A program made the position numbers and the translations under genes. DNA of 64,000 bases from the sequence record OZ346228.1, one strand, 5' to 3'. Below are positions 56,036 through 62,201 of the stretch, one piece after another. The number at the start of each line of letters is the position of its first letter. Position 1 is the stretch's first letter. The notes below the pieces were generated by a model. That model made no database searches and was not told where the DNA came from. It was given only the letters and a program-made list of their open reading frames with translations. This DNA comes from a phage.

Positions 56036-56347
56036 CTATACCCATGAGGGCTTATCAAGGTTGGAGTAGCTGAAAGGTGTCAAAAGGTGACTGTCAAAAT
56101 CTCTCAAACTATCTAAATCTTTTTCCTCGTCCTGACACCATCTGTGCCTACATTTATTGTTGTAGTGCATAGAATGCATAGCGTTCTGCAACTTAACAGG
56201 TACAAGTGATTCAGGAGTAGATAGTATTGTTGGGTATGCCAGAATCACCTCAAACAGTGGAAACACATCGAAACTAAAGTCTACCTCTGCAGAGGTTGAT
56301 GGCATATAGGAGTATTTAGCCGCCTTTGTAGACATAATCCACCTCAC
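56036..56347 (-). CDS. hypothetical protein
   Basis: 103-aa ORF overlapping the upstream gene by 4 nt. Confidence 0.45.
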   Translation of the reverse strand: MRWIMSTKAAKYSYMPSTSAEVDFSFDVFPLFEVILAYPTILSTPESLVPVKLQNAMHSMHYNNKCRHRWCQDEEKDLDSLRDFDSHLLTPFSYSNLDKPSWV

Positions 56348-56670
56348 ACAGGTTTGATAATACCTTTACCGAATAATTCTTCGTATCTAATCTTATCCGG
56401 ATCCCACTCTTGGATAATTTCGAAGACAATATCCAACCCAGGGATAATCACTTCTCCAGTGTCAAGTTTGGCAAGAACAAAACCAGAAGGCTGAATGGTT
56501 TCCCAGTTGCGCCGATTGGAATAGAAGACCTCGAAAATATCGCCGACCTTTATCTGTTGATCAAGATGTTCAAGATTCTCTTTCATATAGACGCAGCGGA
56601 TTTTTCGTGCAGGCCATAGACCACCTGCATCACGTTCATTTAGCTCTTTTACAGTAATCGGTATACCCAT
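56344..56670 (-). CDS. hypothetical protein
   Basis: 108-aa ORF; GAGATTTGAG RBS-like region; downstream of the bidirectional terminator. Confidence 0.5.
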   Translation of the reverse strand: MGIPITVKELNERDAGGLWPARKIRCVYMKENLEHLDQQIKVGDIFEVFYSNRRNWETIQPSGFVLAKLDTGEVIIPGLDIVFEIIQEWDPDKIRYEELFGKGIIKPV

Positions 56671-56724: not shown

Positions 56725-57030
56725 TCATTCTACAGAGCGTTTGAACAGAATGTCTGCCTCAGACATGTGCTCAACCTCTTCTTCGATTTTAGCGCGACGT
56801 TTTTCAGCCTCATAGCGAATATCGAACTCGGTAGCCACCAGAGATTTGATGAATTTAGGAGAATACAGGTGATCCTGCTTCTCAACGAGAATGATATCCT
56901 TAATGGCATCTTTCAGATCTTTAATCTGAAGTTGGAGTTCTACCAGTTCTTCGATTGTTTTGCGAAGGCGATCACGCTCTGCAGTGTCAGAAGGAAGAGA
57001 GGTGAACAGTTCAACTTTAGATTTAGCCAT
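56725..57030 (-). CDS. hypothetical coiled-coil protein
   Basis: 101 aa; AAGGAGA RBS; heptad-like pattern. Confidence 0.5.
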   Translation of the reverse strand: MAKSKVELFTSLPSDTAERDRLRKTIEELVELQLQIKDLKDAIKDIILVEKQDHLYSPKFIKSLVATEFDIRYEAEKRRAKIEEEVEHMSEADILFKRSVE

Positions 57031-57058: not shown

Positions 57059-57310
57059 TTAACGTTCTACAAAAATACCGTTCAGTTCAATAACCAGGAA
57101 TTTCTGGTCTTCACTATCGTCTCGTGCCAGCACCTCACAGACGTATCGGTCATCCCCATCATCATCGCAGTCAAATACAAGACTGAGGACTTTATCATGG
57201 TAAACCTTCGCCACTACCGCCTCGTAAGTATTGCCGATTGTGAATCCAAGATAATCTCCGATGCATTTGACAACAACATGGTCTCCAGCATTTAAGTCAA
57301 TCTTCGTCAT
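57059..57310 (-). CDS. hypothetical protein
   Basis: Start at internal ATG (MTKIDLNAGDHVVV...) preceded by AAGGAG; the track start at 57376 is further upstream. Confidence 0.45.
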   Translation of the reverse strand: MTKIDLNAGDHVVVKCIGDYLGFTIGNTYEAVVAKVYHDKVLSLVFDCDDDGDDRYVCEVLARDDSEDQKFLVIELNGIFVER

Positions 57311-57465
57311 TACTGCGCTCCTTGGGTAATAATACTGTATGTAAAACTTTAACCAGAGATGTGAATAACGCCCCAAAACACACCGATAGCGCTAAAACAG
57401 ACAAGGCCATCATTAAAGCTTCAGTAAAATCAGTCATTCCTCACCTCTTGTTAGCCACTATACTA

Positions 57466-57818: not shown

Positions 57819-58106
57819 TCATAGTGCCTCTAAGATTTCATATCCTTCAGGTCGAAATACAAGCCACTCCGTGGCTCCGTTTGGTCGATACGCTTTATAC
57901 AGAACAACCTGATCTCGGCACATGCACATGGCTACATAGTTTTCATCCACACCTGCAGCCTGCATTGCATCTTCTTCTCCGGCAACTGCTTTGCTTACAA
58001 CTTCCTTGGTAGGTAGGTGTGCGATCAGCTCGTCACCATCATTAATTCCAAAATGACTGAGTTCTCCATTGGTATCTTTAATCTTAATCTTAACCAGATC
58101 TTTCAT
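57819..58106 (-). CDS. small acidic protein (paralog family)
   Basis: 95 aa; MK..KIKIKD start and acidic EILEAL end. Confidence 0.45.
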   Translation of the reverse strand: MKDLVKIKIKDTNGELSHFGINDGDELIAHLPTKEVVSKAVAGEEDAMQAAGVDENYVAMCMCRDQVVLYKAYRPNGATEWLVFRPEGYEILEAL

Positions 58107-58435
58107 TAGTCTTTCTCCAGGTTCAAAGGTCCTAAGATTTCATATGCCAGATTAGAAGTTACCAGAGGGTCTTCTGCATCTTTAGTATTGTACCACCCGT
58201 GAATAACCAGAGTCCCACTTTGTTTCATATCCAACTGGAACTGTTCTGCAGTTTCCTCATCCAGCTCCAAGATTTCCATAAGGTATTTGATGTTAGGAAG
58301 GTATGCAGCTGTTACAGTTCCCTCCACCAAACCTTCGGGCCAACCTACATCCGGATGACAAGTAGGAACCAGGTTGGTCAACTTAATGGTGTACGCTTTT
58401 TCTGCACGAGCCTTCAGTAACGGGTCAATCTTCAT
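58106..58435 (-). CDS. small acidic protein
   Basis: 109 aa; start overlaps upstream stop. Confidence 0.45.
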   Translation of the reverse strand: MKIDPLLKARAEKAYTIKLTNLVPTCHPDVGWPEGLVEGTVTAAYLPNIKYLMEILELDEETAEQFQLDMKQSGTLVIHGWYNTKDAEDPLVTSNLAYEILGPLNLEKD

Positions 58436-58785
58436 TATTCGTCCTCCTCTTCGGTGCCTGCTTCCAGTAATAAGTTAAGAATATCTTCTGCACAAGGCTC
58501 ATAGAACTCTTGGCCTTCATTATCGATGATTTTGTAGTCATCTCCACGAATAATCAGGGGATCACTCTCAAAATTATCGAGACCTTTAACAACGACAACA
58601 CGATCGATTGCCATCATTGTAAGAACTTTATCGACATCTTCCTCTGCTACACCATACTGCAGCAGAATGTCTTTGGTAGGAGGAACAGCATCCACCACAA
58701 CGCCGTTACCAAAACCTTCTGGAAGTTTAGCTAAAATATCTTCCGGAACCACATTCACATCAAAACCGGTAATTTCTACTTTCAT
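58435..58785 (-). CDS. small acidic protein (paralog family)
   Basis: 116 aa; MKVEITGFD start; poly-Glu C-terminus. Confidence 0.45.
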   Translation of the reverse strand: MKVEITGFDVNVVPEDILAKLPEGFGNGVVVDAVPPTKDILLQYGVAEEDVDKVLTMMAIDRVVVVKGLDNFESDPLIIRGDDYKIIDNEGQEFYEPCAEDILNLLLEAGTEEEDE

Positions 58786-59046
58786 TTACAGCACCTCTTC
58801 GTCAACTACTTCATAAAAATGGCCTGGGATTGCAATAGCGTTCTCACCTTCACCTGCAAACACAGTTCCGTCAAGAATCAACATCATAAGAATTTCTGTA
58901 ATATCCTCTTCCGGAACGTTGCCAAAACCTTTAATCAGCTCGTAGGTTGGAATATTTACATCTAAGATGTCACCATCTTTAGAACGGAAATCAACACCGT
59001 CCTGAATCTCTGCCGTTTCAAGGTTTTTCAATTTAATCTTCATCAA
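58786..59046 (-). CDS. small acidic protein (paralog family)
   Basis: 86 aa; MMKIKLKNLE start; YEVVDEEVL end. Confidence 0.45.
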   Translation of the reverse strand: MMKIKLKNLETAEIQDGVDFRSKDGDILDVNIPTYELIKGFGNVPEEDITEILMMLILDGTVFAGEGENAIAIPGHFYEVVDEEVL

Positions 59047-59122
59047 TCGGTCTCCTGTCTTGTTAAGATGAAGGTATTATTTCACACAGGGTTGGCGTTG
59101 TCAACACCTGTGTGCAAGAAAA

Positions 59123-59518
59123 TTACTGAAACAGTGCGGATAAATTACCTTCTGGTGGGAACTTATCTGCCAAAAACGGTGTTAGCACAGTAGCCTTCTG
59201 AAGATCTGGGGTCCACTCGTTGTTCAGAACATCCCAGTAGTACGCAATGTTGCTGTGTGGGTGCCGCATTACGAACTTTTTCCCTTCGTAGTCGTCTGAA
59301 ACCTCTACAGAAGAAATAACAACAGAATCTTCAAGGGTTTCTTCATAGAAAGATCCCCCTTCAAATTTCCAACGAGATGCAAGAGCCCCTGCCTTGAACG
59401 CTGCAGATAACGGACTGTCGGCAAGAACATACATTTCTTGCACTCTGTCGCTGCGATCTTTGCTTCTTACGTTGTATACAGTATCTGAGCTATACTCAAC
59501 ACGGTATAGGCTTACCAT
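59123..59518 (-). CDS. hypothetical protein, paralog of 61330-61728
   Basis: 131 aa; FVMRHPHSNIAYYWDVLNNEWTP matches FVIVHPDSRVKHYWNSRTKTWTP in the other ORF. Confidence 0.5.
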   Translation of the reverse strand: MVSLYRVEYSSDTVYNVRSKDRSDRVQEMYVLADSPLSAAFKAGALASRWKFEGGSFYEETLEDSVVISSVEVSDDYEGKKFVMRHPHSNIAYYWDVLNNEWTPDLQKATVLTPFLADKFPPEGNLSALFQ

Positions 59519-59850
59519 TACCGCACCTCCTCAATAACTTCCACATCTGAACCTACCACAAATGCAAAAGGACAGGTTTCATGAAAGACATCTGGATCGC
59601 CGCCAAGCTTGCTAACAATCTCTCCACCACTAATAAACACAAGCTCACCGATATTCATCAGATTGCTGAAATAGTACCCATAATGATTAAAGAATGCAGC
59701 AGGGTCAGGTAGACTGGTAGCCTCAAGCACTACATCGGTTGAGGTTACTTTCTTATCATAACCTCTCGCCTTTTGAGATGCAAGATCTGCAGAATCCTCA
59801 GGAGACCGGAGATGCACAGGAATTGTTTCACCAATAAAGCGTACTTTCAT
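59518..59850 (-). CDS. small acidic protein (paralog family)
   Basis: Start at ATG (MKVRFIGE...) 4 nt after the upstream stop; the track start 59877 is TTG; ends VGSDVEVIEEVR. Confidence 0.45.
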   Translation of the reverse strand: MKVRFIGETIPVHLRSPEDSADLASQKARGYDKKVTSTDVVLEATSLPDPAAFFNHYGYYFSNLMNIGELVFISGGEIVSKLGGDPDVFHETCPFAFVVGSDVEVIEEVR

Positions 59851-59854
59851 ATTA

Positions 59855-60118
59855 TCACCCAACAACCATAGCTTCAAAAGGAGTCATGAACGAATAAACG
59901 GCATCATCATCTGCTTCAGGGAATGCTCCCAAAGACTTCATATCTGAACCCTTGACAAATACAAGGTTTTGATCAAAGGCTTCTTGGGGGTCAATCCGAT
60001 ACATATTTCGTAGAATATCGCTTACCTCCTCATCAAGAGGTGAGTATGCTGTGCACGTTTTTCCGATCAAGCTTTGAGAATCAGGGTATCCACCTGAAGT
60101 TTTAAAATAAACAATCAT
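59855..60118 (-). CDS. hypothetical small protein
   Basis: 87-aa ORF. Confidence 0.45.
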   Translation of the reverse strand: MIVYFKTSGGYPDSQSLIGKTCTAYSPLDEEVSDILRNMYRIDPQEAFDQNLVFVKGSDMKSLGAFPEADDDAVYSFMTPFEAMVVG

Positions 60119-60209
60119 ATAGTATCACCTCTGGTAAGAGATTGGGATTCCTTTCCCACAAATAATTACAAATCTTCCTTATCGAGGAAGTATGCTAATC
60201 CAAGCAGGA

Positions 60210-60479
60210 TTATTCCTCTACAATCTCATACACATCAGGAGTTACAATCAACTCTTCTCCGTTACCCGGTGCAACAAACACCACCAAACCTTCAGGTGTG
60301 TGCTTTTTAGCCATCTCGATAACATCTTCTCGCAGAGCTGGCTCCATCAGATCAAAACCTTCACCCAGGGCATCACGAACCACCTTCATATAGTCAACTG
60401 GTTGTGCTTCAACAATCATGCCTTCAACCAGTCCACAGTTTTTGTCTGCCAGCTCAGTTTTGAATAATTTAATTTTCAT
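60210..60479 (-). CDS. small acidic protein (paralog family)
   Basis: 89 aa; MKIKLFKTELAD start; TPDVYEIVEE end. Confidence 0.45.
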   Translation of the reverse strand: MKIKLFKTELADKNCGLVEGMIVEAQPVDYMKVVRDALGEGFDLMEPALREDVIEMAKKHTPEGLVVFVAPGNGEELIVTPDVYEIVEE

Positions 60480-60616
60480 TTAGAGGTCTCCTCAATTATT
60501 TGATATTAATAGCCGTAACCTAACACATTAACTACAACTGCGATTGCAAACATAATTTCAAAGCATGCAATCTCTACATTTGGGACTAATTTCTTAATCA
60601 CACCCATTGTAGCACC

Positions 60617-60937
60617 TCATTCTCCAAAGTCAATCTTTACTTTGCCTTTCCCCTTACCTTTCTTTCCACCGCATTTAGCCAGCTGACGTGCTGCAACATC
60701 TACCATACGGTCAGTTGCCTCGTAAGCATCACTGCCTTTAGCCTTGGCAATAACTTCTTTTCCAGAATTGTCAAAAATGAACGCCATAACTTCCTGGTGA
60801 TCATTTTCAACTTTTACACTTACACGTGCATAGTTAACAGAGGGATGTAAACGCTCCAGCTTGGACATTTTGCGGGAAATAAAAGATACCATACCTTCTG
60901 TGATTTCTACATTGTTGCCAGTGATTTCAATTTGCAT
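60617..60937 (-). CDS. hpf: ribosome hibernation promoting factor / RaiA-like protein
   Basis: 106 aa; MQIEITGNNVEITEG...KLER...VKVE...GSDAYEATDRMVDVAARQLAK aligns along its length with bacterial HPF/YfiA (MQLNITGNNVEITEA...KLE...LKVEK...GQDMYAAIDGLIDKLARQL); Lys/Gly-rich tail. Confidence 0.75.
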   Translation of the reverse strand: MQIEITGNNVEITEGMVSFISRKMSKLERLHPSVNYARVSVKVENDHQEVMAFIFDNSGKEVIAKAKGSDAYEATDRMVDVAARQLAKCGGKKGKGKGKVKIDFGE

Positions 60938-61021
60938 AACGTGTTCCTTTTAAGGAAGAGGGAATAACTATCTCTCTTTGAAAACAATGATACTAAATCT
61001 GAAGCGTTGTGTCAACAGTTT

Positions 61022-61312
61022 TTACAGCTTGTTGTCGATAGTTTTTAAAATATCCACAGCAAGATCTGCCATTTTTCGAACATACTCTGCAAACTCAACA
61101 GGATCCTTGATCAAAGAATTCACAGGGTCGTACCCTAGAGCGTTTAAAATGGCTGCAGCATCTACAACCTTCTCATCATTTGCGAAGATCTCTCCGTCAA
61201 ACTTGTAGGTCCATTTTGAGTCAACCTTAGCAGAGCAGGGTTTGTCCATGCTTGTTACACCATCGTCTTTAAACTCTCCTGCGTTATCAATATTTAGAAT
61301 TAAATCCATCAT
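61022..61312 (-). CDS. hypothetical protein
   Basis: 96-aa ORF. Confidence 0.45.
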   Translation of the reverse strand: MMDLILNIDNAGEFKDDGVTSMDKPCSAKVDSKWTYKFDGEIFANDEKVVDAAAILNALGYDPVNSLIKDPVEFAEYVRKMADLAVDILKTIDNKL

Positions 61313-61329
61313 GGTGACACCTCACTGTT

Positions 61330-61728
61330 TCAGTTTAGCTTTTCTTCAACAACCCCATAACTTGGGGCAGAGTCAAGAGCTTTCTGGTTTAAAAGTGGCG
61401 TAGCAGAATCTGCAAACGGTGTCCAAGTTTTTGTTCTGGAATTCCAGTAATGCTTCACTCTGGAATCTGGATGCACTATAACAAAAACTTTTTCACTTGT
61501 CAACACATTAATTTCTTCTACACCCTTGCTGATAATTTCTCCGTCATAGCCCCCAGTCTGGTATCCTTCGTACCAGGTTCTTGCATAGGCATAGCCAGCC
61601 TGCCAGCATGCAGCCTCCTCCGAGGTGGAGACTACGTAGAAGTCTTTCTCAAATTCCGGAATACGCCCTTGCTTTACGCTCCAAGCTCCGCGAATTTTCA
61701 TTGTTACTTTGAAAAGCTTGTTCTTCAT
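61330..61728 (-). CDS. hypothetical protein, paralog of 59123-59518
   Basis: 132 aa; shared HP.S...YW.....WTP segment. Confidence 0.5.
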   Translation of the reverse strand: MKNKLFKVTMKIRGAWSVKQGRIPEFEKDFYVVSTSEEAACWQAGYAYARTWYEGYQTGGYDGEIISKGVEEINVLTSEKVFVIVHPDSRVKHYWNSRTKTWTPFADSATPLLNQKALDSAPSYGVVEEKLN

Positions 61729-61729
61729 A

Positions 61730-61984
61730 CTACCGCTCTACAATCTCTACGTCTGTTCCTACACCGAAGGCATAGTAATGTTCTTCCCCAAAGTAATACT
61801 TGGGGACACCCGCTTTGATCAGATCTAACCCGCGAATAAATACCACACCGTGTGATACAGTGGAATGCTTCTGACGCACAGGATCGTTGTCAGGCAACCA
61901 TTCAAAGTACACCGCAGGTACAACCTTTCCCTTCAGGAAGGATTGTCCCAAGTAGACGTTAGAATCAAGAATTTTAACCTTCAT
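61730..61984 (-). CDS. small acidic protein (paralog family)
   Basis: 84 aa; MKVKILDSNVYLGQ start; GVGTDVEIVER end. Confidence 0.45.
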   Translation of the reverse strand: MKVKILDSNVYLGQSFLKGKVVPAVYFEWLPDNDPVRQKHSTVSHGVVFIRGLDLIKAGVPKYYFGEEHYYAFGVGTDVEIVER

Positions 61985-62201
61985 TCTCGTCCTCCACTAT
62001 CTCTGCATCCTCACCAAGGGCAAAGTTGTAGGTCCACTGGCTGTCAAAGCAGTCTTGAGATGCACCAGCGGCAATAAGATCTGCACCTTTTATTTTTAAA
62101 AGGTCAGGATAATCTTCGTTAGGGATAGCGGTAAACACTTTCCCCACTAAGGGCTCCTGACCAATATAGAAGCTTGAATCTAAAACTTTAACTTTCATCA
62201 A
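61974..62201 (-). CDS. small acidic protein (paralog family)
   Basis: 75 aa; MMKVKVLDSSFYIGQ start; EDAEIVEDENEG end. Confidence 0.45.
   Translation of the reverse strand: MMKVKVLDSSFYIGQEPLVGKVFTAIPNEDYPDLLKIKGADLIAAGASQDCFDSQWTYNFALGEDAEIVEDENEG

Follow-up and report, generated by a model that had tools for sequence, protein, structure and literature searches.

We consider it rather probable that nine small genes in a phage genome region of about 4 kb represent two paralogous families of SH3-like barrel proteins, here called A and B, which act as stoichiometric binders of host proteins in early infection. The window (the whole stretch of DNA that was analysed, 64,000 nucleotides of record OZ346228.1) comes from a Vequintavirus, an rV5-like E. 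coli phage that is 99% identical to rV5-like phages. Such phages are among the commonest coliphage isolates and are candidate agents of therapy and biocontrol; to our knowledge, no function is known for most of their early genes. The finding is an ordinary one of modest interest. Eight hypothetical PHROG families that look unrelated are reduced to two that share a predicted fold, some 4 kb of genome without annotation becomes a set tractable for experiment, and an attractive anti-restriction label that had no support is removed. If it is true that the paralogs bind different host proteins, the array would be a compact example of a virulent phage diversifying a binding scaffold.

All nine genes lie on the minus strand and are named here by their lower coordinate. 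An earlier note on this DNA had described seven of them as one family of small acidic proteins with similar termini. Those seven ORFs, counterparts of rV5 ORF140-154, were all found on the strand and at the lower coordinates it gave, while three start codons had to be moved: in 58786 and 61974 the true start is the ATG one codon in, and in 59518 it is the ATG at 59850 (MKVRF), in agreement with the annotation of every relative. Sizes below are the corrected ones. Two members, 58106 and 59855, had been missed, and profile comparison (HHalign, HMM) splits the members into family A (57819, 58106, 58435, 58786 and 60210) and family B (59518, 59855, 61730, 61974 and, just beyond the window, rV5 gp122, which joins at E 3e-11). 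HHalign probabilities are 73-97% within A (57819, 58435, 58786 and 60210) and 78-100% within B (59518, 59855, 61730 and 61974). The genes of both families are interleaved in one operon, together with the HPF homolog previously recognized among them (Pfam Ribosomal_S30AE, E 4e-15). In runs they abut or overlap at their stop and start codons, and Shine-Dalgarno sequences (GAGGAG, GGAGGA, AAGAGG) sit inside the terminal codons of preceding genes; in tightly packed members, one to three acidic codons at the very end also serve as the ribosome binding site (RBS) of the next gene.

The four-gene run of family A is headed by a sigma-70 promoter at 59076..59104 on the minus strand (TTGACA-17-AATAAT with an extended -10 TG, 11/12 match), the equivalent of P150 of rV5, which is annotated at the corresponding place in that phage. 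Another, at 60987..61015 on the minus strand (TTGACA-17-TATCAT, equivalent to rV5 P144), stands ahead of the HPF gene and the genes behind it. Judging by these consensus sequences, the array is probably transcribed by host RNA polymerase and would be expressed early. The rV5 genome paper, which supports the sigma-70 promoters, does not mention paralogs (PMC3606486), and nothing specific was found in the literature on rV5 transcriptomics or functional screens of these genes.

Within family A, the modelled representative 58786 (58786..59043, minus strand, 85 aa, rV5 gp145/ORF150) starts with MKIKL and ends with YEVVDEEVL. Its neighbor 58435 (58435..58785, minus strand, 116 aa, rV5 gp146, phrog_12155), similar to it at blastp E 1.5e-6, starts with MKVEI; here the terminal motif lies inside the protein (YKIID), ahead of an acidic C-terminal extension of 26 residues that is absent from the L010 homolog, which ends at CYEVVEE. 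Membership of 58106 (58106..58435, minus strand, 109 aa, rV5 gp147) comes from its alignment to the other A members and from an HMM of the other four A paralog groups, which picks it out of 533 ORFs at E 5.9e-6; its first strand, TIKLTNL, comes after an N-terminal extension of 16 residues, and its last strand is YEILG. The last gene of the run, 57819 (57819..58106, minus strand, 95 aa, phrog_12794), has the first strand VKIKIK, ends with YEILEAL and is related by HHalign to 58786 (85%), 60210 (80%) and 58435 (73%). In the rV5 reference record its ortholog is split by a frameshift into gp148/gp149, whether by a real mutation or by an error in sequencing. Apart from the run, and with the HPF gene directly upstream, lies 60210 (60210..60479, minus strand, 89 aa, rV5 gp141, phrog_11868), which starts with MKIKLF, ends with VYEIVEE and reaches 91.5% to 58786 in HHalign; P0067 (L010:8001-8273) is a divergent homolog with the 'IPT' motif of the family.

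Family B was modelled on 61974 (61974..62198, minus strand, 74 aa, rV5 gp135), which starts with MKVKVL and ends with AEIVEDENEG. It shares 41% identity (blastp, E 4e-15) with 61730 (61730..61984, minus strand, 84 aa, rV5 gp136), which starts with MKVKIL and ends with DVEIVER. A profile of phrog_5009 matches both at full length (E 5.9e-37 and 4.2e-27, respectively), as well as 59855 (1.2e-4), rV5 gp122 (6e-36) and a MagusPhagus homolog (2e-30), and this PHROG already unites 61974, 61730 and rV5 gp122 with homologs from lambdoid phages. Gene 59855 (59855..60118, minus strand, 87 aa, rV5 gp142; HHalign 88% to 61974) starts with MIVYF and ends with FEAMVVG. The remaining member, 59518 (59518..59850, minus strand, 110 aa, rV5 gp143), has a long insertion behind its first strand, ends with DVEVIEEVR and is matched by HMM at E 3.3e-5; in HHalign it reaches 92% to 61974 and 91% to 61730 over its C-terminal 37 columns. 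An apparent relation of ORF 61022 to 61730 (HHalign 98.5%) proved to be an artefact of a natural fusion, P0061, present in the 61022 alignment.

The likeness of the termini that was first noticed is strongly enriched and persists in proper alignment within A and within B. The start MK[IV][KER][ILVF] is found in six of the nine members and in one of 112 other ORFs of the window (Fisher p 1.5e-7), and [YVA][EDK][IVA][IVL][EDG] near the C-terminus in eight of nine and in none of the 112 (p 1e-11); both patterns were defined post hoc, which makes these p-values generous. Acidity holds for eight of the nine proteins (pI 4.05-4.68, with 20-25% Asp + Glu) and fails for the neutral 61730 (pI 6.8); the median pI is 4.44 for the families versus 6.6 for other small ORFs. 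In the models, the MK(I/V)K(I/L) start and the (Y)E(I/V)(I/V)E end are predicted to be strands 1 and 5 of a small beta-barrel, and the two motifs would be conserved together because these strands adjoin in the SH3-like fold.

Similar termini could also be a by-product of translation signals instead of protein kinship, the AAA second codon serving efficient initiation and the final GAGGAG being the Shine-Dalgarno sequence of the next gene. Last codons of six of the nine members do overlap or adjoin the RBS of the next gene, and MK starts are also fairly frequent among the other ORFs of the window, but we regard this explanation as very improbable. YEIVEE of 60210 and YEILEAL of 57819 are kept where the next gene is about 90 nt off, the conserved Y-E-h-h lies upstream of the RBS and is strand 5 in both models, the likeness within each family spans whole proteins, and the motifs are missing from some 110 further ORFs of this phage. 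Translation signals are largely ruled out as a full explanation and are valid for the extra terminal Glu/Asp codons only. It is harder to decide whether all nine or ten genes form one superfamily that descends from a single ancestral barrel gene, with A and B as its diverged branches; we lean against this, while granting it a substantial chance. The models of A and B agree in fold class and strand order, and the motifs match in a joint alignment (strand 1 MKhKh, strand 2 G-x-h-h-x-A, strand 3 hVhhxG, strand 5 E-h-h-E). Besides their interleaving in one operon, 59855 of family B carries an acidic helical insertion after strand 2, as in A, and the pairwise P of A versus B in local HHalign is 0.002. 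However, the corresponding probability is only 13%, it falls to 0.7-1.7% in global alignment, and unrelated neighbors score alike (e.g. 57059 versus 58106, HHalign score 23). Adding the secondary structure of the models to HHalign raised the A-B score no higher (global P 0.011), and the HMMs of the two families gave no cross-match at E < 1. SH3-like barrels are moreover very common, so that the fold alone is no proof of common descent, and the insertions of A and B are in different loops. What links A and B is a common predicted fold class and similar strand motifs, without significant sequence similarity.

Structure comparison places the models of both families among SH3-like small beta-barrels, with five predicted antiparallel strands. 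One member per family was modelled (58786 and 61974), from shallow alignments of 26 and 21 sequences, respectively, which are mostly close orthologs and paralogs. A helical hairpin connects strands 2 and 3 in the A model, and in the B model strands 3 and 4 are joined by a helix and a long loop. A search of BFVD with the B model retrieved uncharacterised phage proteins only, with no functional lead and no direct A-B link; among them is an 87-aa protein of the rV5-like Shigella phage CM1 (TM 0.80, E 1.7e-4), which we take, from its length alone, to be the ortholog of 59855. SH3, KOW, PsaE, the C-terminal domain of retroviral integrase and Tudor-like domains belong to the same fold class as the models. 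Unlike these known families, A and B proteins are free-standing and strongly acidic, with family-specific insertions, and no recognizable ligand-binding motif of those families was found in them. Nor do the models qualify as ring-forming barrels of the Sm/Hfq type (defined by an N-terminal helix before a bent five-stranded sheet, and by Sm1 and Sm2 motifs), since they have no N-terminal helix.

Database searches place these genes almost entirely within one phage group. Every gene belongs, over its full length, to one PHROG family (E 1e-27 to 1e-76), the families concerned being 5009, 12359, 12155, 12794, 11868, 12457, 13661 and 13920, all of 'unknown function'. PHROGs divide A into five and B into three, and what is new in relation to them is the kinship among the families and the predicted fold. 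With E values up to 1 admitted, none of the nine proteins matched SH3, KOW, LSM or another Pfam family, nothing in NCBIfam came near the cut-off, and no PDB sequence matched the family profiles below E 0.1. The genes are present in all 119 of the matching Vequintavirus records and are distributed only among Vequintavirus-like phages and a few lambdoid prophages. A word-indexed search of 5.8 billion proteins returned only Vequintavirus orthologs and a few variants and chimeras, as did an exhaustive HMMER search with a joint A+B profile against 1.84 billion representatives (11 clusters at E <= 1e-3), and IMG/VR, searched with the family B alignment, gave one locus, again a Vequintavirus. Near the homolog of the conserved 56725 regulator in Seunavirus GAP31, Mydovirus Ro1, Certrevirus CR8 and phage TH18 there is no detectable homolog of A, B or the further small family C described below (best E 0.25 for C and at least 0.7 for A and B). 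The dN/dS values against eight related phages are typically 0-0.15 and reach 0.47 for 58786; the family genes are real coding genes under purifying selection. Such near-universal conservation and low dN/dS in the genus fit core takeover functions better than counter-defence genes in an arms race, a point against the binder role proposed below.

Fold, charge, size and gene position make a role in binding host proteins the most likely one for the A and B proteins, in which no catalytic motifs were found. They would act early and non-enzymatically, binding E. coli proteins in stoichiometric amounts to block or redirect them; each paralog would owe a target of its own to its acidic surface and variable loops, with the barrel as a stable scaffold. 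The ten barrels may even be a repertoire built by the phage on one duplicated scaffold with diversified loops, each copy directed against another host factor or defence, much as in the multigene families known from large DNA viruses of eukaryotes, or else a hetero-oligomer of the abutting and probably translationally coupled copies; we think both unlikely. Slightly more doubtful still is that they are KOW, Sm or PsaE-like nucleic-acid-binding regulators of RNA, ribosome or transcription, as would fit the HPF neighbor, since a pI near 4 is unfavourable for this, Pfam gave no KOW or LSM match and the models lack the N-terminal helix of Sm or Hfq.

The earlier note had also invoked the logic of Ocr, with small acidic proteins as mimics of DNA or inhibitors of host enzymes. 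As DNA mimics they would shield the genome of the phage against restriction or against other defences that target DNA. Ocr (T7 gp0.3) is an all-helical dimer that mimics bent B-DNA. It resembles A and B proteins in being small, acidic and early-expressed (for A and B as far as their promoters indicate), and some other known DNA mimics, Ugi and p56, are beta-rich. The strong acidity of these small proteins and their early-type operon agree with such a role, and there is a precedent in TifA (Orf65 of Enterococcus phage phi47), an acidic protein with an SH3-like N-terminal domain that directly inhibits type IV restriction enzymes (PMC11322646). TifA is comparable to A and B in its share of acidic residues, about 21%; it differs, by its published description, which is all that was compared, in host and phage lineage, in having an extra domain and in that its function has been shown. 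The predicted beta-barrels are however unlike Ocr or ArdA, for neither of which there was a Pfam match, and 61730 is not acidic at all. Furthermore, Vequintavirinae, whose BASEL isolates are close relatives of the window phage, are reported to be 'exceptionally susceptible' to restriction-modification of types I, II and III, without effective protection (PMC8594841); this evidence, which concerns the phage group and not single genes, gives no sign that carrying the genes protects from restriction. We therefore find DNA mimicry distinctly improbable, while the other half of the earlier guess, inhibition of host enzymes, is plausible by analogy and would agree with the preferred role as host-protein binders.

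The second pair of paralogs that had been pointed out among these genes, family C, is well founded: 59123 (59123..59518, minus strand, 131 aa, rV5 gp144) and 61330 (61330..61728, minus strand, 132 aa, rV5 gp137) are related by blastp (E 8e-11) and HHalign (100%), both belong to phrog_7379, and they have no kinship to A or B. Two genes of family B followed by one of family C occur in this order twice, 61974/61730 with 61330 and 59855/59518 with 59123, which suggests that the block arose by segmental duplication. The families probably grew by tandem as well as segmental duplication, with later divergence mainly in loops and insertions. Single copies of the array can also be lost or fused, as illustrated by the split of the 57819 ortholog in rV5 and by natural 61974/61730 hybrids, P0005 and P0007, the former located on a 133-kb contig.

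All seven ORFs that the earlier note had joined into a single family of small acidic proteins, on the strength of MK(I/V)K(I/L) starts and E(I/V)(I/V)E ends, were found in the window (genes are named here by their lower coordinates), and the observation itself is real, but it describes two families rather than one. Relationships were drawn from all-against-all blastp, iterated HMM searches over all 366 window ORFs and HHalign comparisons of ortholog alignments, and the three approaches concur on families A and B. The core of family A consists of 58786, 58435, 57819 and 60210 (HHalign 73-97%), joined by 58106, which hits an HMM made without it with E 5.9e-6. Family B is centered on the pair 61974/61730 (41% identity, E 4e-15), with 59518 linked through its C-terminal half (HHalign 91-92%) and 59855 linked both by HHalign (78-88%) and by phrog_5009 (E 1e-4). 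A fifth member of family B lies about 1.6 kb past the window end, in the rV5 reference genome (L001:15838-16071): gp122/ORF127, a protein of 77 aa reading MKVKFL...LEVVEE, which matches family B with E 3e-11 and belongs to phrog_5009. By this membership the original list held four A and three B proteins, with one of each overlooked. The two families could not be joined by profile comparison: HHalign of A versus B gave a probability of 13% and P 0.002 across 53 N-terminal columns, which is not significant, global alignment with secondary structure gave P 0.011, and there were no cross-hits below E 1 between the A and B HMMs. Similar HHalign scores are also reached by unrelated neighbours. The second paralog pair proposed in the same note, 59123/61330 (family C), was borne out, with E 8e-11 and phrog_7379 for both. 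Two more small acidic proteins with GDxVxV-type motifs are encoded downstream (57059-57376 and 56344-56670, minus strand); judging from their sequences they may also be small beta-barrels, and the first gives an HHalign value of 15% against 58106.

For three of the ORFs the true start is situated 1 or 9 codons downstream of the longest-ORF start. In 58786 and 61974 it is the ATG following a TTG, while 59518 starts at ATG 59850 (MKVRF), which matches every annotated relative and its PHROG. The terminal patterns are enriched in comparison with about 110 other window ORFs (Fisher p 1.5e-7 for the N-terminal and 1e-11 for the C-terminal one), these patterns having been picked post hoc, with the data already seen. 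Acidity holds for eight of the nine family members (pI 4.05-4.68) and fails for 61730 (pI 6.8); the median pI is 4.44, versus 6.6 in other small ORFs (p 6e-4).

One protein per family was modelled with AlphaFold2, using alignments of paralogs and orthologs as input. The 58786 model (family A, pLDDT 86.5) has strands at 2-5, 26-30, 61-63, 70-72 and 77-80 and two helices at 34-57, and the 61974 model (family B, pLDDT 91.1) has strands at 2-5, 21-26, 33-37, 56-61 and 65-69 and a helix at 38-43. The models place the MK(I/V)K(I/L) start in strand 1 and the (Y)E(I/V)(I/V)E end in strand 5. Strands 1 and 5 adjoin in SH3-like barrels, and the joint conservation of both protein ends can be attributed to this neighbourhood. 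The predicted loop elaborations differ: family A joins strands 2 and 3 by a helical hairpin, whereas family B joins strands 3 and 4 by a helix with a long loop. Members 59855 and 61730 have an extra insertion following strand 2, which in 59855 is similar to that of family A. A search of BFVD with the family B model matched only uncharacterised phage proteins, including those of T4-like, T5-like and other phages. One of them, from the rV5-like Shigella phage CM1 (87 aa, TM 0.80), we take to be the 59855 ortholog, judging by its length. Both the fold and the family assignments are well supported.

Gene packing also bears on the acidic ends. Genes 58786 and 58435 abut, one base is common to 58435/58106, to 58106/57819 and to 59518/59123, and there is an 11-nt overlap between 61974 and 61730. 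The ribosome-binding site of the next gene lies within or adjoins the last codons in six of the nine members, for example GAGGAGGTG, which encodes E-E-V of EVIEEVR, GAGGAGGA, which encodes EEED, and GGAGGA, which encodes ED. Part of the terminal Glu/Asp is therefore accounted for by this overlap. The Y-E-h-h strand is not explained in this way, since it is kept in 60210 and 57819, each of which is separated from the next gene by about 90 nt.

The genes studied correspond to rV5 ORF140-154 (gp135-gp149), all annotated as 'hypothetical protein' and all on the minus strand, and fall within genes 82-163, described in the rV5 genome paper as one long transcription unit (PMC3606486). They are arranged as 61974(B)-61730(B)-61330(C)-61022-HPF-60210(A)-59855(B)-59518(B)-59123(C)-58786(A)-58435(A)-58106(A)-57819(A). 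The ribosome hibernation factor homolog HPF (60617-60937, minus; Pfam Ribosomal_S30AE, E 4e-15) has its own consensus sigma-70 promoter. Sigma-70 promoters, each matching 11/12 of the consensus, lie on the minus strand at 61015-60987, in front of the HPF gene, and at 59104-59076, the sites of the annotated rV5 promoters P144 and P150; from these promoter sequences we infer early expression of the array. Further downstream, a small transcriptional regulator (56725-57030, minus; phrog_639) has 100% identity in most Vequintavirus genomes and retains 42-58% identity in other genera of the Vequintavirinae; a strong terminator-like hairpin follows its gene at 56715-56700. With Escherichia phages naswa, magaca and nomo the window region shares 99% identity, and with about 120 rV5-like phages (genus Vequintavirus) 90-99%. 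Eighteen GenBank records labelled as Campylobacter jejuni phages (MG0656xx, 'Campylobacter phage' C2, C9, A147 and others) are also 94-97% identical to it, and are probably mislabelled or derived from contaminating coliphages.

A B-B-C block occurs twice, as 61974-61730-61330 (61330-62198, minus) and 59855-59518-59123 (59123-60118, minus), and the best matches between the blocks are collinear (59855 to 61974, 59518 to 61730, 59123 to 61330), which suggests that a segment was duplicated long ago. Single copies can be lost or fused. Two proteins of metagenomic relatives (P0005, from a 133-kb contig, and P0007) are hybrids of the 61974 N-terminus and the 61730 C-terminus, and a third (P0061) joins the 61730 N-terminus to the 61022 C-terminus, whereby 61330 is deleted. 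In rV5 itself (L001:8039-8309) the 57819 ortholog is frameshifted into two ORFs, gp148 and gp149, while it is unbroken in the window and seven other relatives, so that the split reflects a sequencing error or, alternatively, a loss that the phage tolerates. One more fusion, of a DUF7399 N-terminus with the C-terminal half of 58106 (P0055), comes from a contig of 657 nt, which is possibly misassembled. In phiWec189 (L002:3987-4235) and MiataMamis (L006:3487-3735) the 58786 allele is only 51% identical between flanking genes that are 96-100% identical, which indicates local allelic replacement. Values of dN/dS against eight related phages are mostly 0-0.15, the highest, up to 0.47, being those of 58786.

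Both families are narrow, as an exhaustive search of 1.84 billion representatives gave just 11 clusters. Around the conserved regulator gene of other Vequintavirinae genera no homologs were detected. In a more distant relative represented by a metagenomic contig (L010, nucleotide identity 68% across 22% of 8 kb), four A genes are clustered, and there is a single C gene and a single B gene of the gp122 type; the B-B pairs and HPF are both missing. Family B also extends to a small number of temperate lambdoid phages (MagusPhagus, mEp554 and mEp013; 35-45% identity); in MagusPhagus the gene sits among about 25 small ORFs from the Q antiterminator to the holin (L003:6001-6228). Of 5,426 complete E. 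coli genomes, 35 carry family B homologs in prophages (chromosomal matches H244-H251). The gp122 type is common to the metagenomic contig and the lambdoid phages, and rV5 gp122 may thus represent the ancestral B copy.

All PHROGs involved are of 'unknown function', and no sequence relatives were found in Pfam, NCBIfam or PDB; the outcome is two new sequence families in a very common fold, from a well-sequenced phage genus. The Ocr-like mechanism suggested earlier does not fit the predicted fold and is not supported. As a functional precedent, the nearest that we found is TifA from Enterococcus phage phi47, an acidic protein with an SH3-like domain. It is a direct inhibitor of type IV restriction enzymes, and its authors refrain from calling it a DNA mimic (PMC11322646). 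In the reading that we adopt, A and B proteins would be non-enzymatic, stoichiometric binders of host proteins, produced early in infection, a role that we consider about evenly balanced between true and false. The barrel would then serve as the scaffold and the variable loops as the elements of specificity for host-protein binding.
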